64,000 bases of DNA, from positions 29,867-93,866 of the forward strand of contig CAYYKJ010000005.1 of the NCBI GenBank assembly GCA_964441265.1, in the 5' to 3' direction. A model generated the notes under the pieces. It worked only from the letters and a program-made list of their open reading frames with translations. It was not told the DNA's origin and did not search any database. The position numbers were made by a program, and so were the translations under genes. Below are positions 27,220 through 57,300 of this stretch, one piece after another. The stretch is from an uncultured archaeon (lineage in GTDB: Archaea; Aenigmatarchaeota; Aenigmatarchaeia; QMZP01; QMZT01). Each line of letters starts with the position of its first letter. The first letter of the stretch is position 1.

Positions 27220-28011
27220 TCATTCTATGACGACCGGTGACCTTTCGTTCATCTCGTCCACTATCTTCTGGAGCTTCCTTTTGCCGGTGTCCAGCCTGGA
27301 TATCAGATCTTCAAACAATTCGTCATCCCCGCTCCATTCGCTTTTTCCGGTTTCCGGTTGGCTCTTTTTGCCGGCCTTCATCTTCAGGTTGAGTATGTCC
27401 TCCAGCACGTCCCCTATCTCCCTGAATTTCCTCTGCTGGTCGCCCATGACCTTTCTCAGCTTCCACAGCTCGTTGAGACGGCTCTCCTGCTTGAACATGG
27501 ATTCCCTTAGGTGTATGATTTCCTTTATGCCGGTCTCCATCCTCCTTTTGAGGCTTTCCAGTTCATCCGATTTGGCCAGCTGATCCTTTTCCCTTTCTAT
27601 TCCGTCGATCCTCATCTCTGCCGCCCTTATGAGCCTGAGGAGTTCGTGGTATTTCTCAAAACTCTCCGGAGATCCGGATGAGGGCTCTGGCGGCTCCATG
27701 GATTCGAGCTTGCCCTCCAGCTCGTTGACTTTGGTTATGAGGAAGGCCACTTTCTTCCCCAAACCCTCCGGGGGGCTTTCGGTGCTGGTTATCAGCTGGG
27801 GAAAGTCCCGCTTCGGGGTTCCCTTTTTCTTTCCCAGTTTGCTCAGAAAACCTCCTAATTTCCCTGATCTGTCCGACTTGGGCGGGGTCCCCGATGCGAT
27901 GCGGCTTTTGACCGGGTCCTTTGAGGGGGCGGGGTTTCTGAACTTATAACCGCAGTTCTTGCAGAATTTCGCGGAACTCCTGTTTTTCGTTCCGCACACC
28001 TCGCACTTCAT
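27220..28011 (-). CDS. N-terminal zinc-ribbon, coiled-coil protein
   Basis: It starts MKCEVCGTKNRSSAKFCKNCGYKF, followed by a long coiled coil. The start was set to ATG 28011. Confidence 0.55.
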   Translation of the reverse strand: MKCEVCGTKNRSSAKFCKNCGYKFRNPAPSKDPVKSRIASGTPPKSDRSGKLGGFLSKLGKKKGTPKRDFPQLITSTESPPEGLGKKVAFLITKVNELEGKLESMEPPEPSSGSPESFEKYHELLRLIRAAEMRIDGIEREKDQLAKSDELESLKRRMETGIKEIIHLRESMFKQESRLNELWKLRKVMGDQQRKFREIGDVLEDILNLKMKAGKKSQPETGKSEWSGDDELFEDLISRLDTGKRKLQKIVDEMNERSPVVIE

Positions 28012-29153
28012 TTTTTGCCTCCTATGCGGGAACCGCACTCGGTGCAGAATTTGGCGTCCTTCTCTATGACTGAACTGCAATGCGGGCATATCCTGCTGGT
28101 CTTGAGTTCCTTTATCTTCTTCCTGTTGCTCTTCTTCATTTCCCGGAAGGCCTTCGCGGTTATCACACCGTTCTCCCGCTGCTCTTCGAGAGTTTTTATG
28201 ATACTTTCTATCCTCTTTATCTCTTTTTTTATCTTCGGGTGGAGACCTGATTTCTTCACTTCCATCACTTCTCCTTCACTTTCCTGCCTTGCCGCCGAGA
28301 TGCGCAGTTTTGCCTTCCCCAGGAAGTCCGACACGGGGGTCAGGGATGGCATTTTCATCCTTCCCGGCGAAGGAAATATCAGCCGGGGAAGTCCCGGGAG
28401 TTTTACATGCCTCTTTTTATAAACCAAAACCGCCCCTGAGCCCAGCAATATTAAAATAATGGCGTAGTAGTATAAAAAATTTGGCTGGGCCGGTCTCTCC
28501 TCTCCGCCCCCTCCGGAGATAATCTTTTCTGCATTGTCCAGAGTTTCCTCGATGCCGCCGATCCGGGTGAGCGCCTCCATCCACTTGTTCTGGCTTATGG
28601 TCTCGTCCACCATGATCATGTTGTTGCGTGCCCTCTCCAGGAGCTTACGGACGGACGGTGACTCGGAGAGGTTCACTTCTGACTCCAGTTCGGAGATCCT
28701 GCGCTTCAGCTTCGCTGACACGTTCCTGGCCAGATCTTCCAGGGATCCGTATACGGATATGTTCACACTCCCGAATTCCATGTCCTCCAGCGAATAGATT
28801 CTCAGAACCACCCTGTACTCCCCGGTGCTAGCGTTGTAGGGAACCTCGAATTTGATCATCACGGTGTCTTCCCCTCCCCTCTGTATGGAGGGGATGATGT
28901 TTTCCGGCTCGAACCAGCCGGTGAGATTCTCCGCCGCCGAGGTCACGTTGCGGAGTTCGGTCTCACCCGTGTTCTCCACGTCTATGCTGACATACCTCAC
29001 CGCCCCCTTCTCTACGTCGAAATTCCGGGGATATATCTTCTTTATCTCGAGGTCGGGGAGGGGCGCTGCTGAAAAGGCCGGGGTTGCGATTATGAGAATG
29101 AGCATGAATACAACAGCCGTGAATGCTGCATGCCCCGCGAACCCCCGTTCCAT
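28008..29153 (-). CDS. membrane protein: extracellular CARDB-like domain, TM, cytoplasmic coiled coil and C-terminal zinc ribbon
   Basis: It has a signal/TM segment (MERGFAGHAAFTAVVFMLILIIATPAFS), a second TM (YYYAIILILLGSGAVLVY) and a C-terminal ICPHCSSVIEKDAKFCTECG. The start was set to ATG 29153 to avoid the TFS gene. Confidence 0.55.
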   Translation of the reverse strand: MERGFAGHAAFTAVVFMLILIIATPAFSAAPLPDLEIKKIYPRNFDVEKGAVRYVSIDVENTGETELRNVTSAAENLTGWFEPENIIPSIQRGGEDTVMIKFEVPYNASTGEYRVVLRIYSLEDMEFGSVNISVYGSLEDLARNVSAKLKRRISELESEVNLSESPSVRKLLERARNNMIMVDETISQNKWMEALTRIGGIEETLDNAEKIISGGGGEERPAQPNFLYYYAIILILLGSGAVLVYKKRHVKLPGLPRLIFPSPGRMKMPSLTPVSDFLGKAKLRISAARQESEGEVMEVKKSGLHPKIKKEIKRIESIIKTLEEQRENGVITAKAFREMKKSNRKKIKELKTSRICPHCSSVIEKDAKFCTECGSRIGGKK

Positions 29154-29211
29154 TTTATTTAATTGATATGGTGCATAAAAAATATTTCCCGCTACCGCCG
29201 CAGGAACCGGA

Positions 29212-29532
29212 TCAGTATTCTCTCCAGCAGTGGCCGCACTTGGTGCACCTGTAAAAGGTGGTGGGCGGTTCGTCACCGGACCTCATCTGCTGCAGCCACC
29301 ACACGGCTTCTTTGTTGCCGCATTTCCTGCACTTTGTCTTTGCCTTGGGAAGGGCCTCCTTCTTCTCGCTTATCACGACCACGTCATCCTTGGGGTCGTG
29401 CTCGATTCTTTCTTTTATGCTGTTGGGTTTGGCCTTCCTTATCTTGTGGCCGCACCTCTTGCATACCAGCACGACCTTTCCCTTCTCCTTTACGGGGGAA
29501 CACATCGAACCGCATTTCGGGCAAAACTGCAT
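29212..29532 (-). CDS. tfs: transcription factor S / RNA polymerase subunit M
   Basis: It has an N-terminal Zn ribbon (MQFCPKCGS...CKRCGH) and a C-terminal Zn ribbon (KCRKCGNKEAVWWLQQMRSGDEPPTTFYRCTKCGHCW). Confidence 0.85.
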   Translation of the reverse strand: MQFCPKCGSMCSPVKEKGKVVLVCKRCGHKIRKAKPNSIKERIEHDPKDDVVVISEKKEALPKAKTKCRKCGNKEAVWWLQQMRSGDEPPTTFYRCTKCGHCWREY

Positions 29533-29849: not shown

Positions 29850-31331
29850 TTACTTTTTCTTTTCCTTCTTGGGCAGCTGGTCTTCCATCAGGGCCTCCAT
29901 CACCCGGGTGTTCTTCTGTATCAGGTCGGTTATCCGCCCCTCGAATTCCTTCAGCTCCTCGGTCCCGGCCTTGTACCTGAGAAGATTCATGAGCTCCTTC
30001 TGGACCCTTTTTATCTTGTTTTCCAGCATCTCCTTCTGTTCGTTCTCCTGCTCCCTGACCCTTTCCCTGACGTCCTTCATGTCCTTCATGAAGCCGTTCA
30101 GGTTGTCCCTGAGTTCATTGAACGCGCCTGTGAGGTTTTCCTTGGCCTCCTTTTCCTTCCCGAAGGATTTCTCCATCCTGCTGACCCTGCCAAAAAGCTC
30201 CCTGGCTTTTCTGAACCCTTCCTCTATTCCGGTGATTCTCTTCTTCATGTCCCCGAGGGATTCCTTGGTCGCCAGGTCGTCTATGGAGTCCTTCAGGTTT
30301 TCCATGGTTTCCTCCATGGAACGTATCTTTCCGGCGAACATCTCGTTGCTGACCCTGTTGATCGTGACGTTTATCTCCTCTATCCTCTCCCTGTTCTTTC
30401 CGGTTATCTCGTCGAAGGCCTTCTTGCTTATGAGACCGTCCGAGAAATCTTCATGGGCGGTGCCGATTATCTCCTCCAGTTTCGCCTTTTCCTCCTCCAT
30501 CTCCTTTATGCTCTTCCGGTTCCTCCGTATCTCGTTAAGTTCCTTCTTCACGAACCTGACGTCCTCCGGTGTTATCTTGTGTTTCTTTATGTCAAGGAAG
30601 AGCTTCTCTATGTAGTCCATCCTCTTCTTTATGCTCGGAGTGAGTTCGGAGGATATGGAATCCTTTATCTTGTCCTCGATCTCGTTCCTGAGGTCGTCTA
30701 CGTCCCCTCCTTTCACTGCCTCGTCCTCAAACATCACCTTGAACCTGTCAAATTCCTTGACCAGTTCGCTGGTGAGGTCGTCGACCTTCTGTATGGTGGA
30801 GGTCAGCGACTTTATCCTCGCTATCTTTTCGTTGGCGTCTGCGAATATTCCCTCCACCTTCGCCCCTATCCTATCCACATACCTCTTGGTCTTGTTTATT
30901 TCTTCCAGCTTCTCCCCGATGTTCTTGGACTCCTTGACGAAGTTCTCGAAACTCTTGACCCTGGAAAGGAGCTTTTCCATCTCCTTGATCTTGCTGTTCA
31001 TGGCCTCCATGAATTCCCGGTCTTTCTCCCTCTTCATTTCCATGGTCTGGATTTCCGCCTTGATATTCTCGCTGCGCTTCCTCAGCACCTTGGGGTCGAA
31101 CTCTTTGGAGATCTCGGACATCTTTTCCGTCTTCGCCTCCATCTCGGTCAGAGTCTTTTCCCTGTCCAGTATCATCCTCCTGAGGTCGCCTATGCCCTCG
31201 GAAAGCTGGGATATCCTGTCAAAAATAGCCTCCTTGAACTGCTCGAACATCTCCACCCTTCCTTCGAGCTTGTCCATCCTAACGATGAACTTTTCCATGC
31301 CCTTGGAGTCACTCTTTTCCTTCTTGGCCAT
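29850..31331 (-). CDS. long coiled-coil protein (K/E-rich) immediately downstream of the giant gene
   Basis: A 493-aa ORF that is almost entirely heptad-like. Only a 54-nt gap separates it from the giant ORF's stop. Confidence 0.55.
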   Translation of the reverse strand: MAKKEKSDSKGMEKFIVRMDKLEGRVEMFEQFKEAIFDRISQLSEGIGDLRRMILDREKTLTEMEAKTEKMSEISKEFDPKVLRKRSENIKAEIQTMEMKREKDREFMEAMNSKIKEMEKLLSRVKSFENFVKESKNIGEKLEEINKTKRYVDRIGAKVEGIFADANEKIARIKSLTSTIQKVDDLTSELVKEFDRFKVMFEDEAVKGGDVDDLRNEIEDKIKDSISSELTPSIKKRMDYIEKLFLDIKKHKITPEDVRFVKKELNEIRRNRKSIKEMEEEKAKLEEIIGTAHEDFSDGLISKKAFDEITGKNRERIEEINVTINRVSNEMFAGKIRSMEETMENLKDSIDDLATKESLGDMKKRITGIEEGFRKARELFGRVSRMEKSFGKEKEAKENLTGAFNELRDNLNGFMKDMKDVRERVREQENEQKEMLENKIKRVQKELMNLLRYKAGTEELKEFEGRITDLIQKNTRVMEALMEDQLPKKEKKK

Positions 31332-31385: not shown

Positions 31386-34300
31386 TCATTTCTTTTTCCC
31401 GCGCTTCTTTTTCTTCTTCCCCTTCTTCCTGGAATGTTTCTTCAGTGATCCCCTGAGGCTGTCCAGGTATATCTCGGTCATCCTGAAGGCCCCCGTCTTC
31501 AGCTTGTCCTTGGCCAGTTTGAGCTCCAGCTTTATGTCGGTGGTGTCCACCTTCTTCTTTTCCAGAGACCTTATCTCCCTCTCCATCTCCTTGAGCTCCT
31601 TGGCGAACTTCTTGTACTTCTCGAGCTCCTCCTCCGGTATCTTGTGCGGGGAATGGAGCAGCGGGCGGAAGGCCACGAAATAAGGCCTCCCCCTGTTATA
31701 CTTGGGATTCTGAACCATTCCCACTCCGACCTCCTGTTTGGTTATCCTATTGGAGTATTCCTCCCCGTATTTCTTCTTGACCCTGTCTATGTCCCCCAGA
31801 CCCTTGGTGTGGAGCTGGAACTCGGTCAGTACGTTTCCCTTTATGGCCTCCTTGAAGTCCGCCAGGACCTGGGAAAGCATTATCATGCCTATGCCCCACT
31901 TCCTGAACTCCCTGCATCCCCTTTCCAGCGCGACGTATCCGCCGCTCCCGCCGTACTTCTCCAGCAGGCGGTGGACCTCGTCGAAGATTACCAGGAGCCT
32001 CAGTTTGGGAGATTCCTCCCAGTCCGTCTCGAATATGGTCTGGACGATGTTCTGGACCGCCTGGTCGAACTCGCCCGGCTTGAGCTTGTTGAGCATGAAA
32101 ACCGTTATCTCCGAGGGGTTCATGAATTCCTTGAACTTAATCTTCACTTTGGGATCAGTGACCTCGAATATCATCCCCTTGAAGGGCATTGCGTCGGTCT
32201 CCTTCATTCCGAACTCGTCGTATCTGTCCAGCATCTTCCTGTCCGTGCACCTCTTCACGAAACCGGTCCACTGTCCCGTGGGGTCGAACACGACCACGGG
32301 TATCTTCAGCTTCAGGCACTCCTCCACCGTTACCATGGCGGATACGGACTTCCCCGCTCCGGTTGCCCCTGCGGAGAGTATGTGGGTGGTCAGGTCGTCC
32401 GGGTCGAGCCACGCCTTGGTCCCGGTCTCCGCTATCTTCCCCATGTATATGGGACCCTTGGGAAGCTTCTTGTAGTCCACGGGGAAAAGGTACCTCCTTC
32501 TCCTCAGCTTCCATTTGCTGTACCACCTGCTCCCCTTCCATCCCACGATGAGGGCGACGGCGATTGCTATGGCCGCGATTAGCATGTATATTTTATCCAT
32601 TGTCCAGAAGGGCTCCACCACCTCGAATATGTCAGCCGAGCTGGCCGTCTTGTTCTCGTAGGAGGCGACCACCTCTATGTAGAATTTACCGGGGTATATG
32701 TTTATTTCGTCCAGGGGGAAATTCTTGACCATGGAGAGCGTCGTCTCCAGGGCCATCTCTTCTTCCTTGTATGCCAGCAGCTTGTTCGTGTTGACGTCGC
32801 GTATGTTGTGGGTCAGGTGGACGTCGAACTTCTTCTTGTACCCGAGGTTGAAGAGAGAGAGCCGGTATCGGACCGTTCCGTTCTGGCCGAGAATCTTGGT
32901 CAGCACTTCCACCTTCACATCCATGAGCGCCTCCTTCTCCGTCACTATCCTCAGCGTCACCGGGATGGTGTTAGGCGTGTCGTCCACCGTAACCAGAAGC
33001 TCCCCGTTGTATACCCCGGGCGGGGCCGACATGGGAGCGAAGAACTTGACCTTTACTGTCTTTGCTGACTGTTCGTCTATGCTGAAAGACCTGCTCTGTA
33101 GCTGGGTGAACTCCCATATCGTTCCGGTGACCTCCATATCGACATCGGAGGCGTCTTCCTGCCGGTTCTCTATGGTTATGGGATAAAGCCTGCTCTCCCC
33201 CGGAAGCAGCTCTATGTCTATCACATCCGTGTCTATGGCGTACGGCTCCTCTTCTTTTGGGCAGTCCTCCGGGCAGTTCTGGTAGTTTTCCCCGGTCTCG
33301 CACCTGTCATTGCCGCAGACAGCCCCGGCGCTGACCCCTCCGGTATATCCCCCTCCGGGTGTTTCCTCCTCGTCGCCCGGTCCGGGGGCCCAGCAGTCCT
33401 CCGGGCAGTTGTCGCTGGATTCCCCGTAGACGTTCTCGCATATTTCGTTGCCGCAGACCACCTCCTCCGCCGCCACGAAGGCGGAGAAATTATCCACGGT
33501 AGCGGTCACGGTCTCCGTGTCCACGTCGACAGAACCGCCCCTGTTGATCCAGGTGGAATTGCATCCGTTTTCGGTCCAGTCCCAGTCCCGGCACTGGTAC
33601 ACCCTTATCACGTCGATGAAGTTGTGTTCGTACCCGGTCCCGGTGAAGTTCATGGAGATATTCGCACGGGAGAAGTTCATGGTGGAGTTGACGGCGAATG
33701 CCTTGAGTATGACCCTCGTCAGGGGTATGCTTATGTATTTCAGGGCGATGTCATCGAATCCGACCGGATCGGTCATGTTCTCCGTCACGTTGATGCCGAA
33801 CATCCCCACCGCGTCCATGCTGCTGTTGATTTTCCACTCGATGTCGTAAACCCTCCTGTAGACGTCCCTGCTGTAGTTTCCTGAGGAGTTGGTGGAGAAG
33901 CTGTTGAGCAGGTAATCCGGAGACAACGACCTGTTGTCCCTGTACATGAAGAAATCTGAGAGCACCGGCTGGCCTTCCATGTCCAGAATCGTCCCGTTTA
34001 TGGTGACCATGTCAGACGGGTAGACGGCGAACCACCATGTGATGTTCCGGAGGTTGCCGTTCTTGTCCCTGGCGTAAAGGACGTAATCGTGATCGCCGAT
34101 GGAAAGTCCGGAAAGGTTTACCGCCCAGTAGGTGGAGTTGGTTTCAGGGGTCTGGTTCTGGAGCCAGCGGACACTCACGCTCCCGTTCGGGTGGGTGAGA
34201 TTCATGCTGACGTTGCTGACGTATTCCTTGTCCGTCAGGTAGGCAAGGACCTCCACTGTTCCCCCCTCCGTCACGGATTCGGATGTGACGTTGACATTGT

Positions 34301-37300
34301 ACGGAGGAGTGGTGTCCTTGTAATAGACCGCGTCAGTCTCGGTATCATTGGCCACGGTCCCGTCGAAACTGTTGGTTGTGTTTATGGTCAGGTTGTGGTA
34401 CTCGGCATCGGTGAGGTTGGGGGCGGTGCATTCCAGATACCACAGCTTGAACGGGCCTATGTAGGATGACGATTCCAGTGCGCAATCCTCTTCGTCGAGA
34501 CGTATGTCGAAATCTACGCCGTCGCTCACCGGAGAGAGCCGGTGGGTGACGTTCGCCGTTATCTGGACGCGGTCACCGGGCAGAACGTCCACCGCCTTGT
34601 CGGAACTGGTGGGCGAGGTGATGTTTATCATGGTGGGCGAAGCTACTGTTATGTGAGTGGAGTTAGTGGCGCTTCCGGGCGAGGAATCCGGGTTGGTCCA
34701 GTATGCGGTGAAGTTTATCGTGTAATTGGCCGGCTGGGTCCCGTTGGGGATCGTCACCGAATATGACCTGGTGCAGTTCTCCCCTGCCCAGACGTCGCCG
34801 CAGCCCTGGAGTCCGGGTACGATTTCCCACCCGGGAGGGAAGTATGTGTGGTTGACAGAGGAGCTGTACAGGAAGCCCTGGCCGGTGTTGGTCAGGTTAA
34901 GCGATATGTTGAAGGTGGTCGAGTAGTTTGCCGTCACGTTGTTGGTCCAGTAGTGACTTGGCATGGTCGTGAAGGCAGGAGATATGGTCTGGTTCTGCAG
35001 GTAGAATGCGTTGCTTGTGCTGGTTCCGTTGCCGTTGTAGTATTCGGAGTCCGTCGTGTTCATCTTCAGGTCATACCAGCCGGCGGGCATGCCGGTGGAA
35101 TCCCATGAGCAGTTATACCATCCGTTCCCCTCGTCATTCGCCGGTGAGCAGCTGAATTCGCTGCCGTTGCTCTCCGGGAAGAAGCTGACATCCGCCGGGG
35201 TCGCGGGATCGCTGCACTCATCCGTGGCGTTTCCCCTGAAGAGTATGCTCTGGGATTCGTAGTGATAATCACCCGCTGGCCGGGTTATGTTGTGCGTGAT
35301 CCACCCCGCCACGGTGAAGTTTCCCTGGGAGGAATTGTATTCCTTGTAGAGCGAATCCCCCAGCCCCGCTTCCCAGTACTGGTAATACACCGAGTAGGTG
35401 CAGTTTATACTGTCCAGATAATATCTGCAGTACCCCCCGGAATCCGTGGTGTTTTCGCTCTCGGTTGTATAGGAGATTCCGTCCCTGGTGGACCAGAAGG
35501 TACAGTTCCTGCCCCCTTCCAGGGGAATGCCCCTGTCGGAATCGGTAACCATCACCTCTATGAGCGCCTTCTCCCCCGCATTTCTGGACAATGTGGTGGA
35601 GGAGTTCCCGGTTATCTCTATCAGCAGGTCATCCCTCTCTATCGAGGGCCCGGTGAACTCGGAGGTGTTGCTGGCGTTGTTGTAGTCGTCCTTGTATTCG
35701 AACATGAATCCCATGGTTTCCCCTATGTCCGATGAGTTGAACGGCCTTATTGTCCAGTATGGCGTGCTTCCGGCTCCCACCAGTTTGGTCTCGTTCTTCT
35801 CCCACGTTCCGCTGTTGTTTATCCAGAGCGTCACGTTCACATCGTCACCGTTATGGTCGTAGACGAACACGGAATAGTTGTATTCCGCCCCCCAGCCGTC
35901 CGTTGAGTTGGACACATTGGCATCGCTCAGCTGGGGGGGCTCGTTGACCGTTGTGACATTTATGATTAACTCGTCCCAGCATTCTCCTGCAGGGGAGCAG
36001 GTGGAATTGGTCGCGTTCGCCTGTATGGTGCAGGGACCGGTCGTTTCCGGATACCCCAGGGGAACGGTCACGTTTATGTCGATCACTATGTGGGTCCCGC
36101 CCGTGAGGTTCGAGACATTTTTGGGTATCAGGGTTATCTTCCTCTCGTCGAGGGGGTTGGCGCAGAATCCGCTCTTGTTTGTGAACCGGATGTCGGAAAG
36201 CTCTGCGCTGCAGTCAGCGTCTATTGTGAAATTCCCTATGGTCGTGGTCCTCCCTATGAACGCGCCCCCCGCTATTTCATCCTCCCTTATCTCAAGATCA
36301 TAATTCTCCGTTACGTTCACCTCGGTTTCGTTGACTGCTGAATTCTCTGTGCCTATCATGTTCGTCCAGTTGGCCTTGAAGCCTACGTAGTAAATGCCGG
36401 AGGTGGTCCCGTTGACCACGAGAACGGTGAAATTTCTGGTGCAGTTGTTCCCTGTCTCTACCATGCCGCAATTATGACTCACCGGGGTCACGTTCCACCA
36501 CCCTGGGAAATAGCTCCTGTTTATGGTGGCGTTGTAGAGATATGCCTCTCCCGTGTTGTTGAGAACGGCGGTGAGGTTGAACGTCTGGTTGAGGTATTTT
36601 GTGACGTTGTCTGTTTCCTTATATATGGGAATGAGAAGCAGATCCGCGAAGGTCTGGGTGGCCTCCAGAACGAGGGCGTCCTTTTTGTTGTAGGTGCCGT
36701 TGTAATAGACCGGGGTCGAAGGCGGGGAGGGGAGATTGGTGGTGTTCATGGTGATGTTGTACTTTCCGGTCTCCTGATTCCATGAATCCCATGTGCAGTT
36801 GTACCAGCCGCTCCCTTCGTCATTCACCGGGGTGCACTGGCTCACGTTTATACCGTTCTCGTTTATCAGGTGGAATTCCACGTTGCCCAGACCGTCCACC
36901 GTGTTATCGCAGTCGTCGGTGGTGTTTCCCCTTATCGTTATGTTTTCCCCTTCCAGATAGTTTTCCCCGTCCGGGGTTTCTATTTTGTGTCTGAACTGGC
37001 CCACCACGTCAAGCTGGGATGTGATTTCGGCGTAATCGTAGTACTTGCTTTCAGAGACCTTCCCGTACCAGTCCTGGTGACCGACGTAATAGCTACAGTC
37101 CGGATTGAAGTACCTCCTGCAGTACCCCTCAGAGGAGGTGTTGGAAAATGAGTCCGGACTCCCTCCTCCGGTCAGGGTGACGTTTATGTAGCAGGCTATG
37201 TCGTAGATGGCGAGGGTCCCCCTGTCGGTGTCGTTTATGGAATATTCTATCAGCGTTTTCTTTGTTCCGTCCCTTGGTGCCTCGCAGTCGTCGCAGGCGG

Positions 37301-40300
37301 TCACCACCAGGGTTATGTTGTCCTTCTCCAGCTTTCCCGTTCCCTCTGACGTGTTCATCTGGTTGAAACTGTCGTTCACCCGGAACCTGTAATTATAGGT
37401 TTCGTTGTCATCTCCCGCGTATAGATCGGTCCCGTTATAATCCTTCGCCTCCATGGAGCAGGTATAGGGTGCCTGCTGCGTGGTGGAATTCTTCATGACC
37501 CAGATTCCGCTCGCGTTCGACCAGAGTTCGCATGTAACGTTGTCATTCTCCGGGTCCGTTATGCTCACGTTGTAGGTGAATGTGGAACCCCATCCCTCCT
37601 GGTAGGGATCCACCGAGAGGGAGGACCATCCGGGCTCAAGGTTGTCCAAAAAGAACCAGTCCCCCTCCGAAACGCTCCCGTTGTTGTAATAGGTCCCGGA
37701 GTAGTTCATCCTCACGTCCCAGTCCCCCTCGTCCTTTCCCGTCGAGTCCCAGGAGCAGTTGTACCATCCGTCCCCCTCGTCATCCACCGGCGTGCATTCC
37801 TCCCAACTCATCCCGTCCAGGCTCACTTCGAAGGTCGCCCCAAGACCGGAAACCATCTCCCCTTCATCATCGGTGACGTTCCCCCTCAGCGTGACAATGT
37901 CCGTAACGTTGTGGTCCTCCTCGTACTCCACCATACCGAAGAGATCACCGAACACGGTCACGTTATAAACGCTGGAGTTCTCGTCATCATAGTACTCGTC
38001 CCCCTCCGTCCCTATAATCCACTCCTGCCTCCCCACCGAATAGATCCCGGACGGATCAAAGCTGAAGTTCGCATACCCTTCCGGATCGGTCACCCCTGAG
38101 CTGTCCGGATTATACCCGGCCCCGTCAGTGGTCACCCACAGACTCACGTTAACATCACTCCCCAAGAAGGCGTCCCTGTCCGTGTCGAACACCCTCACCT
38201 TCAGGTCCGTGGAATTCGTCCCCGACCTGTTCACCTCGCTCTCGTTCCCCGCGACATACTCAATCGAGACGTTGTCCTTCTGCACGTATGGACCGCTGAA
38301 TGTAGTTGTATTGGTCAGGTTGTGCTTTTTGTCTCCGGTGGAGTTCAGGTCGTTGTATTCGAACAGGTAGTTCCTTGTCTCTTCCGTGTCGGAGAAGGAG
38401 AACGGACTTATGGTCCAGTTCACCATCGTGCCGGAACTCACGACCTTGGTTTCGTTCCTCATCCATGTCCCTCCGGGGTTCACCCAGAGCGTTATGTTGA
38501 TGTCATCGTCGTTGTTGTCGAATACCTGGACAGAATAATTGTATTCGGCTCCCCACCCGTCCACCTGCTCTGTGACCTGTGCGTTGCTCAGGACCGGAGG
38601 ATCGTTCACTATGGAAAGGTTAAGGGTGACCGTTTCCCAGCATTCGTTCGCCGGGGAACAGGCCGTTCCCGTGGCGTTGGCCCTCAAGATATACACTATC
38701 CCCTCCTCTTCTTTGTCATCTGACTGGGAGGTGGCATTTATGTTTATTTTCATGGTATTCCCTCCCGGGAGGGAGGAGACCGGATCCGGGAAGAAGTAGA
38801 CAACCGGATCGGGCGGCATGTTCAGACATGCCCCGGAGAGACATTCTATTTCCACGTCGGAGAGGTTTCCGCTGCCGAAGGCCACGAGGGTGAAATTCCC
38901 GATGGTCGTGGTTGTCCCTGAAGAGGCGTTCCCGTAGACGACCGATTCTGATATTTCAAGCTTATAGTTTGGTGTGACATTCACCATGGTCTGGTTGGCG
39001 GCGGACTTGTTCACCAGGTTCCCTTGGGTCCAGTTTCCGGTGAGGTTCACGTAATATATTCCCTCCGTGGTCCCGTTGATCACGGTTATGGTGAAATTCT
39101 CTGTGCAGTTTTCCCCGGGAAGGATGTCCCCGCAGTCGTGTATGGAAGGGGAAATGGTCCAGTTTTCGGGCATGGTGTGGTTGTTTATGGACGCGTTGTA
39201 AAGCTTTGAAAAGCCGGTGTTGTTCAGGGTGACCTGTATTTCGAATGTCCTGTTGCTGCTCCTGTTGATCCCGTCCACTATGTTCTCCTCCGGAATTATG
39301 AGCAGGTCAGCCGAAGTGTCGTTTGTCTGGAGGAAGAAGGCGTCCACCTTTTTGTATTCACCCCCGTATCTCAGGTTGTGGTCGGTGGAATTCATGGTTA
39401 TGTTGTAGTTTCCCATCTTACCACCGCTGGAATTCCACGTGCAGTTGTACCATCCGCCGCCGTCATTTGTCACGGGGGTGCACTGGGTCACGTTATCCGC
39501 CTCGTTTTCCAGATAGTAGAAAACCTTCCCGTCCAGCGTCTGGATGGTGTTGCCGCAGTCGTCGGTGGCCCTGCCCCTGATGGGAACGTTTTCTCCCTCC
39601 GTGTAGTCCTCCCCGTCGGGTATTTGTATCTGGTGGTATATCTGTCCCCAGATGTTCACGTTTTGGCTGGTGATCGTTGCGGTCTTGTAATAACTGTTTT
39701 CGGGGATCTCTCCCATGAAGTCCTGCTGCCCCAGGAAATATTCCCCATCCCCGTCCGTGCTGTTGCACCCCGGGTTAAAGTACCTCCTGCAGTACCCGGG
39801 GCTCGTGGTGTTAGAGAAGGAGTCGTAGTTCGAGAAATCTCTGGTCACGTTCAGACGGCATTCGATCTGATGCGTGATGAGACCTCCCCTGTCCAGATCG
39901 GTTATGTTGTATGAGATCAGCGTCAGAGTGTATTGATCCCTGGGGGCGTGACAATTGGAGCAGTCGGTGACCTCCAGTTCTATGTCGTCCTTCTCAAGCG
40001 TCCCGTTCTCCGTCGTTGTGTTTACTTCGTTGAAGGTGTCGTTCAGCCGGAACTTGAAAAGGTAATCACCCTGATAATCCCATTCGTAGTCATCCGCGTG
40101 GAGCGAGCATATGTACGGTGCCTGGGCGGTCATCCTCCCTTTGAGGACCCATCCCCCGCCCGCGTTGCTCCATAGCGTGCAGGTCACGGAATCGTTCTCC
40201 GGGTCGCTGACTGTGGTGTTGTATGTGAAATTGTATCCCCAACCGTCTACAGGGGGATCCACCAGCAGCGGGGATGAGTTGTAAGGCTCAAGGTTGTCCA

Positions 40301-43300
40301 AAAAGAACCAGTCCCCCTCCGAAACGCTCCCGTTGTTGTAATAGGTCCCGGAGTAGTTCATCCTCACGTCCCAGTCCCCCTCGTCCTTTCCCGTCGAGTC
40401 CCAGGAGCAGTTGTACCATCCGTCCCCCTCGTCATCCACCGGCGTGCATTCCTCCCAACTCATCCCGTCCAGGCTCACTTCGAAGGTCGCCCCAAGACCG
40501 GAAACCATCTCCCCTTCATCATCGGTGACGTTCCCCCTCAGCGTGACAATGTCCGTAACGTTGTGGTCCTCCTCGTACTCCACCATACCGAAGAGATCAC
40601 CGAACACGGTCACGTTATAAACGCTGGAGTTCTCGTCATCATAGTACTCGTCCCCCTCCGTCCCTATAATCCACTCCTGCCTCCCCACCGAATAGATCCC
40701 GGACGGATCAAAGCTGAAGTTCGCATACCCTTCCGGATCGGTCACCCCTGAGCTGTCCGGATTATACCCGGCCCCGTCAGTGGTCACCCACAGACTCACG
40801 TTAACATCACTCCCCAAGAAGGCGTCCCTGTCCGTGTCGAACACCCTCACCTTCAGGTCCGTGGAATTCGTCCCCGACCTGTTCACCTCGCTCTCGTTCC
40901 CCGCGACATACTCAATCGAGACGTTGTCCTTCCGGACATCCGCTCCCTGCGAGCCGGTATCGTCCTTCCCTCCCTCATAATCGCTCGCATTGAACTTGTA
41001 CGACCTGGACCCCACGTCATCGATGTTCCAGCCAGGATCGTGCAGAAATGACACTCTCTCATCCGTGCAGGGACAGCTGACATCCATGGAATTGACGAGT
41101 TCCCACCCGCCCCCCCTGTCATACCATAAGCTCACGTTCACCGTGTCCGGGTTGACCTCGTTCAAATCCACCGAATAGTTCCACCATTCCCCCCATCCCC
41201 CGTCCTGTTCCGTCGCTGAAGACGGGCCGCTCAGCACGGGATCGGTGGTGTTGACAGAAAACCTCCCGCCGAAGGAATCGCTCCCGTCGTTGTAATATGT
41301 CTTGCTTGTGTTGACCCTGACGTCATAAGTACCATACGTCTGGTCATGGGGGACGTCCCACGTACAATTATACCAGCCGCCCCCCTCGTCATTCACGGAG
41401 CAGCTGCCGGTTATCTCCTCCCAGCTCCCGCCGCCCGGAAGAACCTCTATCGTGTTCGAGACCCCGCTTACCATGCTGGAGTTGTCATCCGTGACGTTCC
41501 ACCTGAAAAGAACGGAATCGCTCCCGGCCCTGTAGGTCTGGCCGGATGGCTCCTGGAGGGAGGCGTTCAGTTCGCCTATGATGTTCAGGGACCCCTCTGA
41601 GCTGTTGGAATCCTTGTAATACGCTCCCCCCGATATTCCCGCCTTCCAGTTCTGGACTCCTGTGGAATAGTTGTTATCGGGCTCGAAATCCAGGGTGCAG
41701 TGTCCGGTACTGTTGGTGGTGTTTGTCCCTTCGTGTATGTAATTGGAGCCGTCCTTGGTTATCCAGAAGTGACAAGTGATATCAGGGACCGGAAAGCCCC
41801 TGTCAGTGTCGTTTACGAATGCTGTGAGGGTCATTTTCTGTGAGCCGCTCCTGTTGACCTCCCCCCCGTCACCTTCCGTCAGGGAAACCCCCGTGTCATC
41901 CTTCTCCACGGTTACCGGATAGGCAGGGGTGATGTTAGTCTCGTATTCGTCGTCTATCAGCAATCTCCAGTATTGGTTTCCCACAGCATAACGGCTCCAT
42001 GAGGATTTGACGTTCAGGTAGTTCCATCCAGAACACCCCCAGCAGGTGGTGGAGTTCATCGTACTCCATGATCCAGTCCTATTCTCCTGCACAGAGACAG
42101 TTATGTTGTCGGCCTGGTCCTGGTCGCTGACATTGATATAGAAATCCCACGTCTCTCCCCATCCCTTGTTATCGTCTCCAGACACGTCCTTGTACTGAGG
42201 CACGTAGTTTTTCAGGATGAATTCCTGAAGCGAGGAATGGCTCGTCTGTCCCAGCGAATTGTTGGCGTACCAATAATAGCTCATGTTCTGGTGGGACTGG
42301 GTGTAGTTTCCCTGACCTATCGTTATATAATACTCGTCGCTGGCGTTCTGGGCTCCCGTATAATTCATCACGTGCGTTCCGTTGTGGAATTCAAGGGCGG
42401 TCCAGTTGACACCGTAGTCGCTGGTCATGGTCACGTTTATCTGGACGTCCTGGACTATGTTTGGGGGGTCGGGGTCTATCTTATGCCCGGAGAAGCTGAC
42501 CCCCACTATCTCCAGGTCCTTCACTGTCTCCTCCGAGGTGGTGTGACCCTCCACCGTATACGTCGTGTTGACCAGTATGGGATACGTTCCCAGTTCGGAA
42601 GGCGCCTGGAAAGTGATGTTGTAGTCCCCGTCAGCGTCGGTCTCGAAAACGTAATCCTCATTCCCTGTTTCGGTGACATCAGGCTCGGCCCCGAAGAGGG
42701 ATATCCTGTAATTGTCCATAAGTGAATCCGAGGCACTTTCTCCCCAGAGAGAGGCATTATATGGGCCTCCCGGAAGCGAGACCGAATCGTTGCTTACCTT
42801 GGCCTCATCTATGTCCGTGTAAGATTCGGCATATGTATCGTTTCTTAACATGGTCATGTTATGCCAGACGAAGGTGTCTGAGTTAAAGGTTTCATTTGAT
42901 GCAATCGAAAGATAGTTGTATAACCTTATCCGGTTGTAATTGCCTGACCAGTATTGGGCGGTTGAAGCCAGGAACGTTGTATTATCCTTGTAAACACACG
43001 GACCCACTTCGTAAAAATCATAATACTTGAGTTCCGCCGTTATGTTTACGTAGTTGTAGTTTTCCGTGAAATTACTAACGACCCATTTATAATTCTGGTT
43101 GGAGCCGCCAAGACTCATATTACCCTCGCTGCAGTCCAGATTACTTGTACAGTCCTCACCTTCACCCCAGTCTGAAGCGTAATCGTCCTTTATGCACTTC
43201 CACCCGTCGCAGTCGTTGTCGCTGAAATCGTCATAGAATACGTAGCAGGTATCACCCTCGTATTTCATGCAGACTTCCCCGTAGTCCGGATCCCCTGACA

Positions 43301-46300
43301 GTGGGTTGCCGTAGTACATGGTCACGTTGAATATCGAATCTTCCGAGAGGTTGGCCTTGAACCATATCCTGGTTGAGGAGTCGTTGCACGCGGTTTGGTT
43401 GGACCACTCCAGCTCCTCGCCGTCCTGGAAGATCCTGAGGTCGGAGCAGCTGGCGTTGAGCTTCCCCTGGGAAACGAGGGTCTCGGTGTCTATGTCCGCG
43501 TAAACCGGGAACTGGTCTATCCCCTGCCCTCCGGTGTTGTTTATGCTCAGGTTCTCTCTGTATGCCCAGTTGTAGTCCCACCACCCCTCTGGATGGGAGT
43601 CACCTATCGAATATATGTCCACCATCCCGTTTATCAGGGTGCCGTTCATGTACATGTTGAAGGCGTGGTTCGCGAGGTCGGTTCCGTTGGTGAGATTTAT
43701 GTGTCCCCAGGCGGAGACGTATTCATGCTGGACCGTGGTCTCGTTTGGCTCCAGTGTTTCGGAAATTAGTATGCCGGGATAAACTAGGAGATTCGTTGAA
43801 TTTTTTCCTGATACCTCATCATCATTAACGGTCACCGTATATATTCCGTAATCTCCGGAGGAAATGTTCGGTGCCAGGAAGGATATGTTGTAGTATCCCG
43901 TTGCGTTGCTCATGTCTGATCCGTAAAACGTGTCGTTCAGGTAAAGGCTTATGTTCTCGTTTTCGATAGGCGAACCAGTTGAGGAATTGACGACCTGACC
44001 GTAAACGCTTATGTTTTTTCCCGAAAAGGTTTCATTCTCCGACAGCTCTTCTGAAATATTGATTTTCGTTTCAATGTCAGTTTCAGTGCTGTTGACCCAT
44101 GAAGACCATTCCGTCCCGTTGTATGCCCTGCAGCTGAACTTCCATGATTGCCAGCTGGTGATGTAAGAGCTGTCTACCATATCCAAAAAATTGCTCTGGT
44201 CGTTCGTCCAGAAGGAGCTGTATTCGCTGGAGTCCGTGGTCACGCTGGGATCGCTCACATTATGATTGCCCGTGTCGCCGTCCCCGATCTGGCCGTCGCC
44301 GCCATGTCCCCAGCACAAAACCCTGCCGTCGCTTTCGCGGATTCCGCATGTATGATAATAGCCGGCGGCAACGCTCGTGTATTCGCTCGAATCCGTGGTA
44401 ACGTTAGGATCTCCCGCCCCGTGGATGCTTGTGTTCCCATCGCCCAGGCGCCCGTATGTCCCGTTACCCCAGCACAAGACTCTGGAGTCATTGGCCCTTA
44501 TCCCGCATGTATGGTAGTTCCCCGCAGAAACGCCCAGGTATTCGCTGTCGTCCGTGGTCACGTTTGGATTGCCCACGCTGTGGTCGCCGACGACACCGTC
44601 CCCGAGTTGGCCGTGGTCACCGAACCCCCAGCACAAAACCCTGGAATCATTAGCACGAATACCGCAGGTATGTTGAAATCCGTTAGAGACGCTAATATAG
44701 GCGCTGTCGTCCGTTGTCAGGGTGAAATACGGTACGTTGTGCTGGTCAGTTCTTCCGTCCCCGATCTGTCCATTGTTCCCGCGTCCGCAACAGAGCACTC
44801 TGGAATCGTTGGCACGAACGCCACATGTATGCACTCCTCCCGCACTCACGCTCAGGTAAGCACTGTCATCCATGGTCAAGTTCGGGCTGCCCACGTCATG
44901 GATATCAACATTCCCGTCACCCAATCTCCCCCCGTATCCGTATCCCCAGCACAGCACCCTCGAATCGTTCGCCCTGATGCCGCATGTATGGGCATCCCCC
45001 GTCGAAATGCTGAGATATGCGCTCTCATCAGTGGTCAGGTTCGGATGTCCCACGCTGTGGGCGTTGGTGTCCCCGTCACCCAGCTGACCTTCGTTACCCA
45101 GACCCCAGCACAACACCCTGGAATCGTTGGCACGAACGCCACATGTATGCACTCCTCCCGCACTCACGCTCAGGTAAGCACTCGTATCCATGGTTACATT
45201 GGGAGAACCCGCCTCGTGGGCGTTGGTGTCCCCGTCCCCGAGTCTTCCCTGGTTGCCTAACCCCCAACACAAAACCCTGGAATCGTTCGCCCTTATGCCG
45301 CATGAATGTTCATCACCTGCGCTGATGCTCCCTTTCTTGAAGGCCGTCCCGTTCACCCACTCGACTGAATCATTATACCATTTGTATTCGAACTTCCGTA
45401 TCTCGGCGTCCTCGTCCCCGGTCGCATTGCAGTACCCTCTCAGGTTGTCGTTGGGGTTGGCCGTGTCGGGCTTTATGGTCACGTCGTTTATGGAGACGGA
45501 GAGGATATCGTATTCATCCCCGCCCTCGTCCTGGCTCTGGTTTGTGCCTTCTTCCACCGGCTGCATGGTTGTTATGTTGTTGACCGCATTCCAGGCGTCT
45601 ATCCTTGAGATGTTTGTCGTATAGGTCGAATTGACCTGATAGGGTACCGGTTTCCCGGTGGTCTTGAGCATATGCTCCACCTCTCCGGGCAGGAGGGGTT
45701 CGTTCTCCAGAAGCAGTGCCGAAACCCCCGAAACGAAGGGGACGCTCATGCTGGTCCCGCTCCTTTTCGAGTATTCCCCTCCCATGGTCCTTACCCGGAT
45801 GTCCTCCCCGGGGGCGAGGAGATCTGTCCAGTGATTCACGCTGGAGAAGGAGGCGATTTCGTCATCCTTGGTGGATGCCGCCACGCTTATCACCCCGGAG
45901 CCGCAGGCGGGAGACTTTATTTTCCGGGAGCCGTCGTTCCCGGTCGCCGCTATGACCAGAGTCCCATTGTCGACGAGCTGGTTGCAGTATTCAGCCACCG
46001 GGTTGGAGTCGCAGTAGCCGTCGTAGCTTCCGGAACCTATGGAGAGCGAGATTACATCCGCACCCTCCTGTTCGCAGTATTCCAGACCTTCAAGCACGTC
46101 GGATTCGTATCCTTTCCCGTCCCTGTCGATGACCTTGGCGACGACAAGGTCTATACCCGGTGCGACCGAATCCAGTATGCTGGCCACCTCAGTGCCGTGT
46201 CCCTGGTCGTCCCATGGGTCGTTGTCATCGTTCACGAAGTCGTGGCCTTGGGAGAAGGAATGGATATACATATAGTTGATTCCGGTGTCCAGGAAGCAGA

Positions 46301-47029: not shown

Positions 47030-47413
47030 ATGTCGGAAAGAATTAAGCGTGGTTTTATGAAGGTCAGAGACGACCTCCTGAAGGTCAAGGATTTCATAAG
47101 GAAGCCCGCCAAGGCAAGGCCCTATCCCGAGGACGTTGATCAGGTCGTCCTCCAGCTCAAATCGCTCGACGAGAAGATAGACGAGATAAAGGAATTTCTC
47201 ATGAGCAAGAAGGAGAGCCCCGTCAAGCTCAAGAGGAAGAAGCAGATAATCTACGTTCTGAAGGAGAAGGGAAAACTTACTGCAACGGGGCTCAGCAGGA
47301 CCCTCAAGATATCCAGGAATCGAAGCAACGAGTATCTCAGGGAGCTGGAGAAGCAGGGCATAGTAGAGGGCCTCTCCGTCGGCAAGAAGAAATTCTACAG
47401 GATGAAAGAATGA
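47030..47413 (+). CDS. coiled-coil plus winged-HTH protein
   Basis: It has the C-terminal wHTH LTATGLSRTLKISRNRSNEYLRELEKQGIV. Its stop overlaps the minD-like start in an ATGA overlap. Confidence 0.55.
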   Translation: MSERIKRGFMKVRDDLLKVKDFIRKPAKARPYPEDVDQVVLQLKSLDEKIDEIKEFLMSKKESPVKLKRKKQIIYVLKEKGKLTATGLSRTLKISRNRSNEYLRELEKQGIVEGLSVGKKKFYRMKE

Positions 47414-48156
47414 GAAGGATAATAGCGGTGGCCTCCGGGAAGGGAGGAGTCGGAAAGACCGTGACATCCCTGAACCTCGCCATGGCCCTTCATGAAGCCG
47501 GGGAGGATGTCGTTGTCGTCGACGCCGACCTGAACAACCCATCTGTCGGCCTCCATCTCGACCTTTTCCACGCCCCGACCACAATAAACGACGTTCTGGA
47601 AAGGGACATCCACATATCCGAGGCATTGCAGATACACCCCTCCGGCCTGAGGGTCGTACCATCCTCGGTTTCCATAGAGAACCTCCACCCGAACACGGTG
47701 AGGTTCCGGGAGATATTCCATGACCTCGACAGTTACATAATTCTTGACTGCGCCCCGGGATTCGGCAGGGAGGTCCTGTCGGCTCTGGATGTCAGCGATG
47801 AGATAATGGTGGTCACCAATCCCAATTTTCCCGCCGTCGTTGGGGCCATGCGGCTGATGGAGGTGGCCAAGGACATGGACAAGAAGATAATCGGAATTGT
47901 TCTCAACAGGATAGGAATGAGCGACGTGGATGAAGAGGAAATAGAGGGAATCTGCCAGGAGAGCATAATAACCGAGATACCCTTCGACAGGAACGTCGAC
48001 AGGAGTGTCAGGAACAAGGTTCCCCTGATAAGGCACGCACCCCTCTCCCCGGCCTCGGTGAAATTCCGCTTTCTGGCGGGGAGGGTTTCCGGCAACGAGT
48101 ACGTCCCCCCGAGGTTCCTCCCGCTGAGGAGGCTGGCCGGGAAGATCAGAAGATAA
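47410..48156 (+). CDS. minD: MinD/ParA-family P-loop ATPase
   Basis: It has the deviant Walker A motif SGKGGVGKTV and the Walker B motif YIILDCAPG. Confidence 0.85.
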   Translation: MRRIIAVASGKGGVGKTVTSLNLAMALHEAGEDVVVVDADLNNPSVGLHLDLFHAPTTINDVLERDIHISEALQIHPSGLRVVPSSVSIENLHPNTVRFREIFHDLDSYIILDCAPGFGREVLSALDVSDEIMVVTNPNFPAVVGAMRLMEVAKDMDKKIIGIVLNRIGMSDVDEEEIEGICQESIITEIPFDRNVDRSVRNKVPLIRHAPLSPASVKFRFLAGRVSGNEYVPPRFLPLRRLAGKIRR

Positions 48157-48193
48157 CTTATTAAACCGCGAATGAAAAATTTAACAGTATTAT

Positions 48194-55393: not shown

Positions 55394-55411
55394 ATTTCTT
55401 CTTTCTATATT

Positions 55412-55441
55412 AATCTTGTCTCTGCTCATTGCAGAGATAGT
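55412..55441 (+). repeat. direct repeat, copy 2, downstream of the DGR target gene
   Basis: See 54385-54411. It starts 19 nt after the target gene's stop codon. Confidence 0.6.
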
Positions 55442-55643
55442 TGTCCCGGACAGCTGTGCATCGGTGCAGGCACTGTCCAAGGACTTGCCTGGAGCATGCT
55501 TGAACTACATGCCCGGCTGTAGCGCGTGAGAAGAGATCCGATCCGTAATTGCTCGCGCCGTGAAATTCAGCAGCGATAGCCGAAAAATGCGTTAAAGCTG
55601 CGGTGCGGCCCAATGGGGCCATTGGGCAGCCGGGCTACATAAG

Positions 55644-55815
55644 CGCGTGCCGTTAACTCGTGGTCTGACGACAACAACGGCCCGTTGTGCGTTAATGTCG
55701 GAAGAGCATCTTCCAGCAGCGCAAACCTCAACAACGAGCCCCGGAACAGGAAAGACGGCAAGCGAACGCTTGTCTTTGCCCTGAACTCGAATATCGGCTC
55801 GTTCGCCGCGAATAG
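55644..55815 (+). repeat. DGR template repeat (TR)
   Basis: It is the A-rich counterpart of the VR, with AAC/AAT codons in the VR reading frame. It contains two extra segments, about 55696-55725 and 55754-55786. Confidence 0.85.
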
Positions 55816-55858
55816 TTCGGGTTGTCCGGGACCAATACTGATAACAGGACGGTCAGGC

Positions 55859-57264: not shown

Positions 57265-57300
57265 ATAGATGCATTGCTAATAACATTCCAAGGTGGGTTA

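Follow-up and report, generated by a model that had tools for sequence, protein, structure and literature searches.

What kind of motor is carried at the inner end of a giant archaeal surface protein, and on what could it act? The question is raised by a 64-kb stretch of an Aenigmatarchaeota-like genome (from contig CAYYKJ010000005.1; this whole stretch is called the window below), in which a single gene on the reverse strand encodes a protein of 5,175 amino acids whose tail of 383 residues holds an ATPase. Sequence profiles and a structural model place this tail as a catalytically complete ATPase of the FtsK-HerA superfamily, nearer to HerA than to VirB4. When this identity is taken jointly with the proposal that the tail is a ring-forming motor which moves a polymer, the combined reading is considered probable. 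The protein itself is, very probably, a new member of the published SPEARE giant proteins and is not new in kind. What goes beyond the SPEARE papers is the placement in the HerA clade, the core module, the spread of the family (including Hydrothermarchaeota), the tandem paralogues and the downstream partner.

Identity of the ATPase tail

The tail and the segments that tether it comprise the following features.

32538..32588, reverse strand: single transmembrane (TM) helix YMLIAAIAIAVALIVGW, residues 4777-4793 (hydropathy; helix 273-306 of the AlphaFold2 core model)
32451..32537, reverse strand: basic juxtamembrane stretch KGSRWYSKWKLRRRR and conserved linker RYxFPxDYxxLP, residues 4794-4822 (alignment and AlphaFold2)
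31668..32450, reverse strand: RecA-like ATPase core of the FtsK-HerA superfamily, about 260 residues, 4823-5083 (Pfam, profile against PDB, AlphaFold2, Foldseek)
32346..32369, reverse strand: Walker A GATGAGKS, residues 4850-4857; K4856 corresponds to HerA K154 (alignment to 4d2i)
32268..32297, reverse strand: VVVFDPTGQW, HerA-type FDPxG motif; D4878 corresponds to HerA D176 (alignment to 4d2i)
31962..31997, reverse strand: Walker B LLVIFDEVHRLL; E4980 corresponds to the HerA catalytic residue E356 (alignment to 4d2i)
31869..31904, reverse strand: RKWGIGMIMLSQ; R5005 corresponds to the HerA arginine finger R381 and Q5016 to the sensor glutamine Q392 (alignment to 4d2i)
31392..31634, reverse strand: C-terminal three-helix region, residues 5095-5175, motif LELKLAxDKLKxGxFxMxEIY (AlphaFold2 and alignment)
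31389..31427, reverse strand: lysine-rich C-terminal end KKGKKKKKRGKKK, non-conserved, with a predicted local distance difference test score (pLDDT) of 73 in the last block

An earlier note on this DNA had read the tail as a HerA/VirB4/FtsK-like NTPase of about 260 residues behind a TM helix. The features on which it leaned (the TM helix, KGSRWYSKWKLRRRR, GATGAGKS, VVVFDPTGQW, LLVIFDEVHRLL, RKWGIGMIMLSQ and KKGKKKKKRGKKK) are all present in frame and in place, and the size agrees with that of the core. Residues of the giant protein were paired with those of HerA through the HMMER alignment to PDB entry 4d2i. HerA requires K154, D176, E356 and R381 for ATPase activity, as determined by mutagenesis, and R381 acts in trans (PMC4351679). 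The columns of K4856, D4878, E4980 and R5005 are invariant in an alignment of 65 homologues, as are F, D, P, T, Q and W of VVVFDPTGQW. In the juxtamembrane linker, R32, Y33, P36 and P43 (tail numbering) are near-invariant.

Regarding the family assignment, Pfam DUF87 (helicase HerA, central domain) matches the tail above its gathering score (40.4 bits, E 4.5e-10), and HerA_C also exceeds its cutoff (23.8 bits, E 2.1e-5). A third family, ResIII, barely does so (23.0 bits against 22.5, E 8.3e-5) and covers the stretch from Walker A to Walker B alone. The type III restriction enzyme label that was given to the cytoplasmic part of the SPEARE proteins (Hamm et al. 2019, PMC6642349) traces to this marginal match. 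According to that published label, the tail would be a type III restriction endonuclease-like domain degrading incoming DNA. Nevertheless, ResIII is a helicase/ATPase subunit family and not a nuclease, DUF87 scores higher, and the structural neighbours listed below are FtsK-HerA ATPases or close relatives, with no superfamily 2 helicase among them. Moreover, the ATPase core and three helices take up the whole of the 383-residue tail, in which there is no nuclease domain. The re-analysis of SPEARE by Reva et al. (2023, PMC10266531) likewise concluded that there is no nuclease, and a restriction function is regarded here as extremely improbable.

That re-analysis described a VirB4/TraG-like ATPase followed by a coiled coil and proposed a type IV secretion "straw", in which the tail would act as a VirB4/TraG-type secretion ATPase and effectors would be injected into the host by the giant protein (PMC10266531). 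This published proposal finds an echo in weak Pfam matches of the tail to AAA_10 (16.5 bits, cutoff 27.5), TrwB_AAD_bind (16.3, cutoff 20.5) and T4SS-DNA_transf (15.7, cutoff 20.1), all of which lie below their gathering scores, as does FtsK_SpoIIIE (19.2, cutoff 24). NCBIfam gave far sub-threshold matches only, led by CedD and then HerA; CedD reaches 35.1 bits against a cutoff of 600, so the tail is not a member, and TraC reaches 18.7 against 567. When the profile of the 65-member family was compared with all PDB sequences, S. solfataricus HerA (4d2i) came first (4.4e-11), followed by six more HerA-type entries; IcmO/DotL (0.022) and FtsK (0.14) were weaker, and no VirB4 entry appeared at E<=1.

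The structural comparison gave a similar order. AlphaFold2 modelled the tail from the 65-homologue alignment with a mean pLDDT of 94.2 and a predicted template modelling score of 0.90, and Foldseek against PDB ranked HerA 4d2i first (1.4e-12), then Sir2-HerA, DUF4297-HerA and T. kodakarensis HerA-NurA, and later DndH-C, TcpA, the STIV2 packaging ATPase B204 and VirB4. All ranks from 1 to 29 are HerA-type save DndH-C at 18. The coupling protein TcpA (rank 30) and VirB4 (rank 47, 6.7e-7) both have probability 1.00, which speaks in favour of the secretion proposal. The earlier note had regarded missing catalytic residues, or best structural matches among non-translocase families, as damaging to its idea; the catalytic residues are complete and invariant, and the structural matches are headed by HerA and then by its FtsK-HerA translocase relatives. 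Its assignment therefore holds for the HerA/FtsK superfamily, with HerA as the best Foldseek and profile match, and is weaker in its VirB4 part, which is sub-threshold in Pfam.

Neither the all-alpha domain of coupling proteins nor the VirB4 N-domain PF03135 was detected in the tail with Pfam. PF03135 has been reported for the second ATPase of nanohaloarchaea (Reva et al. 2023, PMC10266531), and tandem second ATPase genes in some genomes could also favour a secretion system. However, the family members P0095 and P0100 (623 and 628 residues), which come from the two organisms of that study and are taken to be those second ATPases, gave no PF03135 match at E<=0.01, and their N-terminal halves consist of a signal peptide and an Ig-like ectodomain homologous to the juxtamembrane region of the giant protein. 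The second ATPase is a paralogue within the family and not a distinct VirB4. Furthermore, no VirB2-, VirB6- or VirB8-like family is conserved in the 80 related loci compared. The VirB4 label of SPEARE is not supported by the score thresholds, and we judge the secretion straw to be unlikely.

Archaeal HerA is the hexameric DNA translocase of the HerA-NurA end-resection machine. The tail resembles it as its top structural and profile match and in keeping Walker A and B, the FDPxG aspartate, the trans arginine finger and the sensor glutamine. On the other hand, sequence identity is only about 15%, the tail is membrane-tethered and its C-terminal helices are different. The AlphaFold2 model contains no HAS-barrel: a linker and one beta-hairpin are seen in the approximately 29 residues between the TM helix and the core, and this linker holds the position of the HerA barrel and is far too short for one. 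Of the 30 window genes compared with Pfam, a set that does not include every small open reading frame (ORF), none encodes NurA, Mre11 or Rad50.

After the core, the segment that had been described as a coiled coil with a possible nucleic-acid-binding end is modelled as three helices (tail-model residues 319-344, 350-364 and 368-399), with conserved columns at D351, E355, L358, K362, K364, G366, F368, M370 and Y374. The lysine-rich end is present, and the homologues stop before it. It is lineage-specific and, because it is not conserved, it falls outside the core mechanism of the family. This non-conserved segment, modelled at lower confidence, may nonetheless bind nucleic acid.

The giant protein, its core module and the SPEARE family

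Outside the membrane, the protein is organized as follows.

31386..46913, reverse strand: giant surface protein gene, 5,175 amino acids counted from the ATG (ORF list and translation)
46773..46853, reverse strand: N-terminal signal peptide or anchor, residues about 22-48, with KKKK n-region, hydrophobic core and AMA-YD (hydropathy scan and sequence reading)
45654..46316, reverse strand: subtilisin-like serine protease domain, residues 201-421 (Pfam Peptidase_S8, E 5.1e-35)
44151..45329, reverse strand: seven RCC1 repeats giving a beta-propeller, residues about 530-922 (Pfam RCC1_2 3.8e-37, WD40_RLD 2e-47)
33327..44069, reverse strand: Ig-like/NEW3/CARDB-like beta-sandwich repeats, about 3,600 residues, heavily rich in sequons (Pfam and internal repeats)
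32589..33323, reverse strand: juxtamembrane ectodomain, residues 4532-4776, with cysteine-rich CGNxxCExGENxxNCPxDC, two beta-sandwiches and a PFWT motif (homology to short forms; AlphaFold2)

According to the ORF list and the translation, the frame runs over about 15.5 kb (31386..46916, reverse strand), with a TTG start at 46916 and the ATG as codon 2. The public protein library holds the identical 5,175-residue sequence as P0121. The triad motifs of the protease were located (Asp in DTG210, His in HGT240, Ser in GTSM387), and the RCC1 region appears at the DNA level as seven 159-nt repeats (44203-45310). In the beta-sandwich stretch, Pfam detected NPCBM_assoc (7e-15), together with Big_7, MG2 and CarboxypepD_reg matches that are mostly sub-threshold, and a self-comparison in 300-residue chunks revealed a super-repeat of about 880 residues in about 2.5 copies. 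The SPEARE type is marked by a serine protease domain, which the protein has, and by adhesion domains with at least one laminin-G among them. No laminin-G family of Pfam was found in the ectodomain at E<=0.01 by sequence-profile search, the only kind of search made for it; Ig-like, NEW3 and RCC1 were detected.

A hydropathy scan found two hydrophobic segments only, at residues about 22-48 and about 4770-4797, and basic residues stand on the C-terminal side of the second. In the AlphaFold2 model the TM helix is one long helix that continues into the basic stretch KGSRWYSKWKLRRRR. The ectodomain holds 264 N-x-S/T sequons, where 75.6 +/- 7.4 are expected from its own composition, whereas the Lys/Arg-rich tail holds none, and this fits an archaeal N-glycosylated ectodomain with a cytoplasmic tail. 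The sequence thus supports a protein that is exported through its N-terminal signal peptide and crosses the membrane once. The single ORF, the distribution of sequons and the two hydrophobic segments bear out the earlier view of the ATPase as the cytoplasmic end of a giant protein. Outside the cell, the predicted ectodomain carries the subtilase, the RCC1 propeller and Ig-like repeats that are N-glycosylated and run to thousands of residues.

Two copies of the super-repeat (about 2.65 kb each) share a 100% identical block of 648 nt (37633-38280 and 40285-40932), and the flanking repeat is diverged. Either recent gene conversion or a collapsed or duplicated repeat in the assembly could explain this block. 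Such repeats could mislead an assembler and short stand-alone forms of the ATPase exist, so the fusion of ectodomain and ATPase could be seen as an error of assembly or gene calling that joined separate genes. Against this, no stop interrupts the frame over its 15.5 kb, the sequence at the junction is unique, and the short forms carry a homologue of the juxtamembrane ectodomain. The fused architecture is also seen in dozens of independent genomes, where complete ORFs span 1,144-3,589 residues and many ORFs exceed 3,700, and in library proteins of up to 7,878; the nanohaloarchaeal protein was detected by proteomics (PMC6642349). An artefact is therefore scarcely credible.

The short forms also reveal how the giant is built. 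Residues 4532-4776 match the complete ectodomains of proteins of 550-700 residues (E 1e-23 to 1e-7), and in a second AlphaFold2 model, of this core module (pLDDT 89.1), two beta-sandwiches are joined to a single long TM helix, followed by the ATPase and three helices. The last 645 or so residues are thus an ancient core module that also exists as a standalone protein of 550-700 residues, and the giant is this module with a variable N-terminal extension of about 4,500 residues. Minimal forms consist of the TM helix and the ATPase (P0042, 385 residues; P0094, 400 residues).

A homologue search over 5.8 billion proteins returned 249 homologues, the best 120 of them at 49-67% identity, and there are 363 clusters at E<=1e-30, with representatives of up to 7,878 residues; such matches lie well outside what chance would give. 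In GTDB species genomes at least 582 loci were found, mostly in Aenigmatarchaeota and also in Woese-, Pace-, Nanohalo-, Undin- and Parvarchaeota and in Hydrothermarchaeota. The ORFs at such loci range from 385 to more than 3,700 residues, the latter being the length visible in the flank taken; complete ones cluster near 2,200 and 2,950-3,100 residues and many exceed 3,700. Neighbourhoods and tandem copies were counted at 80 related loci. The ectodomains are hypervariable across the family, whereas the motor is 50-84% identical. The closest genomic relative is a locus in an Aenigmatarchaeota metagenome-assembled genome (L001), with 84% identity in the tail, 60% over 1,991 residues of the giant and syntenic downstream genes. 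Three Hydrothermarchaeota loci (L013, from the 1.9-Mb contig of Ca. Hydrothermarchaeum profundi JdFR-18, L029 and L053) encode giants of more than 3,700 residues together with the coiled-coil partner described below, and the family is therefore not confined to DPANN or to symbionts with small genomes.

Two tandem copies occur at 8 of the 80 loci, usually the giant followed by a short form, and their ATPase domains are 65-89% identical to each other, against 50-60% typically between genomes. In the window, no short paralogue or second VirB4-like ATPase is present: phmmer with the tail against all window ORFs returned the giant alone, and the remaining Walker A proteins are CDC48, RFC and ParA-like.

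Some members of the family differ in build. A subfamily (P0193, P0198, P0209, P0237, P0192 and P0217) has a different, longer N-terminal ectodomain and 350-700 extra cytoplasmic residues after the ATPase; this extension is K/E/P-rich and carries two or three copies of a small HVNxxKNDFANW domain. P0085 (468 residues) aligns with 78% of the tail (64% identity), but the Pfam domains precomputed for it are those of proteasome subunits. This hints that a proteasome gene lies next to a family member on its contig or is joined to one. A proteasome activator near the nanohaloarchaeal gene was mentioned by Reva et al. (2023, PMC10266531).

The SPEARE proteins of Nanohaloarchaeota reach 8,553 residues, are mostly extracytoplasmic and have a TM segment near the C-terminus and a cytoplasmic part that is their most conserved region; relatives in Woesearchaeota, Aenigmarchaeota, Micrarchaeota and Altiarchaeales were already reported (Hamm et al. 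2019, PMC6642349). The protein of the window shares the giant size, the largely extracellular bulk, the single TM helix near the C-terminus and the most-conserved cytoplasmic ATPase followed by helices. Its tail is 53-54% identical, over more than 90% of its length, to P0077 (SG9 AQV86_02330), P0095 (Ca. Nanohalococcus occultus) and P0100 (Ca. Nanohalovita haloferacivicina). It differs in coming from a non-halophilic Aenigmatarchaeota-like genome, in the absence of a short paralogue after the giant gene, in its lysine-rich end and in its clear Pfam subtilase and RCC1 propeller, whereas no protease was found in the nanohaloarchaeal proteins by Reva et al. (PMC10266531).

The downstream partner and the proposed ring

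The gene after the giant bears on how the tail could work.

29850..31331, reverse strand: coiled-coil partner gene, 493 amino acids, cytoplasmic/soluble, without TM segment or P-loop, 54 nt downstream of the giant gene

A homologue of this gene lies immediately downstream on the same strand at 62 of the 80 loci (60 of the 71 with at least 1.5 kb of downstream sequence). It is the sole conserved neighbour, it carries a conserved N-terminal motif, and no TM segment is present in any of the downstream homologues. A match due to mere coiled-coil composition was rejected, since there is one match per locus, always the next gene on the same strand; the other coiled-coil protein of the window (48194-50584) matches nothing at the related loci. 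A fusion of partner and ATPase was also dismissed, as the C-terminal extensions of the subfamily look K/E-rich with HVNxxKNDFANW and not partner-like when judged by eye, no search with the partner having been made. A protein homologue search with the partner returned 8 proteins, a number held down by its word prefilter. The partner gene was not found described in Hamm et al. 2019 or Reva et al. 2023 (PMC6642349, PMC10266531).

We propose that the tails form a ring below the membrane, probably a hexameric one, since an arginine has to reach the active site in trans (R5005, aligned with HerA R381); it is the invariance of this arginine that suggests the hexamer. The ring would cooperate with the cytoplasmic coiled-coil partner encoded downstream, and ATP hydrolysis would move a polymer at the site where the ectodomain contacts another cell. 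The earlier note had pictured six giant ectodomains around one pore-like motor. This would not be required, because many genomes encode a short paralogue beside the giant and, where one exists, rings may mix giant and short subunits, a possibility with which the tandem paralogues are compatible.

The preferred cargo would be DNA, imported or exported, by analogy with HerA, FtsK, CedB/CedD and TdtA, and DNA translocation in particular is held tentatively, as plausible and no more. CedB and CedD are TM-anchored HerA-clade ATPases needed for DNA import in Sulfolobales (PMC11868833). They are archaeal as well, place an N-terminal TM helix before a cytoplasm-facing HerA/VirB4-like ATPase and act at cell-cell contacts. 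However, the Ced ATPases have a VirB4-like N-domain and no ectodomain, and they work through a polytopic CedA/CedE channel with CedA1 pili; no channel or pilus gene of this kind is linked to the giant gene. TdtA of Thermus is a membrane-associated hexameric HerA-like DNA donor ATPase (PMC5365140). VirB4, VirD4/TraG and FtsK/SpoIIIE share the superfamily fold, are membrane-associated hexameric motors for DNA or protein and give weak Pfam and Foldseek matches. They are set apart from the tail by its sub-threshold scores, the lack of a VirB4 N-domain and of an all-alpha domain and the missing type IV secretion neighbours; furthermore, the single TM helix replaces the polytopic membrane domain of FtsK/SpoIIIE.

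Defence HerA rings scaffold and activate Sir2 or DUF4297 effectors. These rings (Sir2-HerA, DUF4297-HerA and mad8 of MADS) are high-ranking matches in Foldseek and PADLOC, and they raise the possibility that the ATPase is a ring scaffold, or a mechanical or regulatory motor that acts on the ectodomain (e.g. the protease) or on the coiled-coil partner by clustering, stretching, reshaping or activating it, without transport of any substrate across the membrane. The sole conserved neighbour is indeed a soluble coiled-coil protein and not a channel, a single TM helix per subunit makes a poor pore, and the minimal forms hold little more than helix and ATPase. Nevertheless, the defence rings are soluble, possess a HAS-barrel and have a nuclease or NADase effector gene, whereas here the ATPase is fused to a surface protein and the neighbour is the coiled-coil partner. 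We know of no precedent for signalling by a HerA ring through a single-pass helix, and the transport of DNA or protein is the task of most of the membrane-linked superfamily members that have been characterised. The hypervariable ectodomains above a well-conserved motor also argue for a generic cytoplasmic job and not for regulation of a specific domain. A purely scaffolding or regulatory role is considered rather unlikely, although it is, with the secretion straw, a serious rival.

Several observations weigh against the polymer-moving HerA-type ring. With one TM helix per subunit, six helices could not alone line a pore of the size of DNA, and no polytopic membrane protein of the CedA/VirB6 type was found: no window protein has more than two predicted TM segments, and none is conserved in the 80 loci. 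The model lacks the HAS-barrel, which aids ring and channel formation in HerA. The giant gene has no linked nuclease, relaxase or DNA-binding domain, and the members in Hydrothermarchaeota imply that the family is not tied to the symbiotic lifestyle of DPANN. The Foldseek TM-scores are nearly equal (about 0.50 for HerA and 0.46 for VirB4), and the HerA-clade call therefore rests on E-values and sequence profiles. Finally, proteomics of nanohaloarchaea recovered the cytoplasmic part in size fractions other than those of the ectodomain (PMC6642349), so the tether may be cleaved in those organisms.

A bolder reading is that the giant, the short paralogues and the coiled-coil partner form a new archaeal envelope machine, in which a HerA-clade ring, possibly a mixture of one or a few giant subunits with short ones, tethered by single-pass helices and braced by the partner, would import DNA or another polymer from a neighbouring cell that the ectodomain contacts. 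This is a doubtful proposal at present. If true, it would be a one-gene "adhesin plus import motor" distinct from type IV secretion and from Ced, and it would predate DPANN symbiosis, as Hydrothermarchaeota carry the family too.

Other genes of the window and meaning for the family

Beyond the partner, two zinc-ribbon proteins are encoded at 27220-29276 (reverse strand), one with two predicted TM segments and the other with none. One of the pair carries a NEW3 domain like that of the giant ectodomain. The pair is syntenic with the closest Aenigmatarchaeota relative and is not conserved more widely. Divergent from the giant, at 47030-50584 on the forward strand, lie a winged-helix regulator (47030-47413), a ParA/MinD-like ATPase (47410-48156) and the 796-residue coiled-coil protein already mentioned (48194-50584); ParA-like homologues are near the ATPase gene at only 7 of the 80 related loci.

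A likely diversity-generating retroelement occupies 54512-57264 (forward strand), with a reverse transcriptase at 56188-57264 (RVT_1, 1e-21) and an Rfam RT-16 RNA at 55465-55643 that lies just at the gathering score. A template-like repeat at about 55644-55820 matches the 3' end (about 55161-55290) of the ORF 54512-55393, and nearly every mismatch falls on an adenine in the template copy. Pfam gave no match for the target ORF, and the giant gene was rejected as a target, since the template matches the ORF 54512-55393 only. Two tandem HAD-family hydrolase genes follow (57274-57948 and 57962-58657, forward strand), whose DNA is 68% identical over 640 nt, a local duplication. No rRNA or tRNA gene is present in the window.

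Two further genes of the window encode a RuBisCO large subunit of form III type (59691-60962) and a protein resembling AMP phosphorylase (61951-63492), in which Glycos_transf_3 is combined with a CDC48_N-like N-terminal domain. RuBisCO and AMP phosphorylase are enzymes of the archaeal nucleotide (AMP) salvage route, and this route would fit an organism that uses imported nucleic acid.

Taken by itself, the window yields a sound annotation, that of a known type of protein in an Aenigmatarchaeota-like genome. Its wider interest lies in the DPANN archaea, whose genomes are tiny and whose cells live attached to archaeal hosts. For the way in which they draw material from these hosts, the SPEARE-type giants are the most conspicuous candidates, and the ATPase is the only well-conserved part of these proteins. 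The complete set of catalytic residues, the lack of VirB4 or nuclease features, the coiled-coil partner and the frequent short paralogues shift the family towards the HerA clade. This assignment redirects tests towards ring formation, DNA-stimulated ATPase activity and partner binding, and away from restriction activity or type IV machinery of the classical sort. Concrete handles on the function of this widespread motor are offered by its conserved partner and by the core module.

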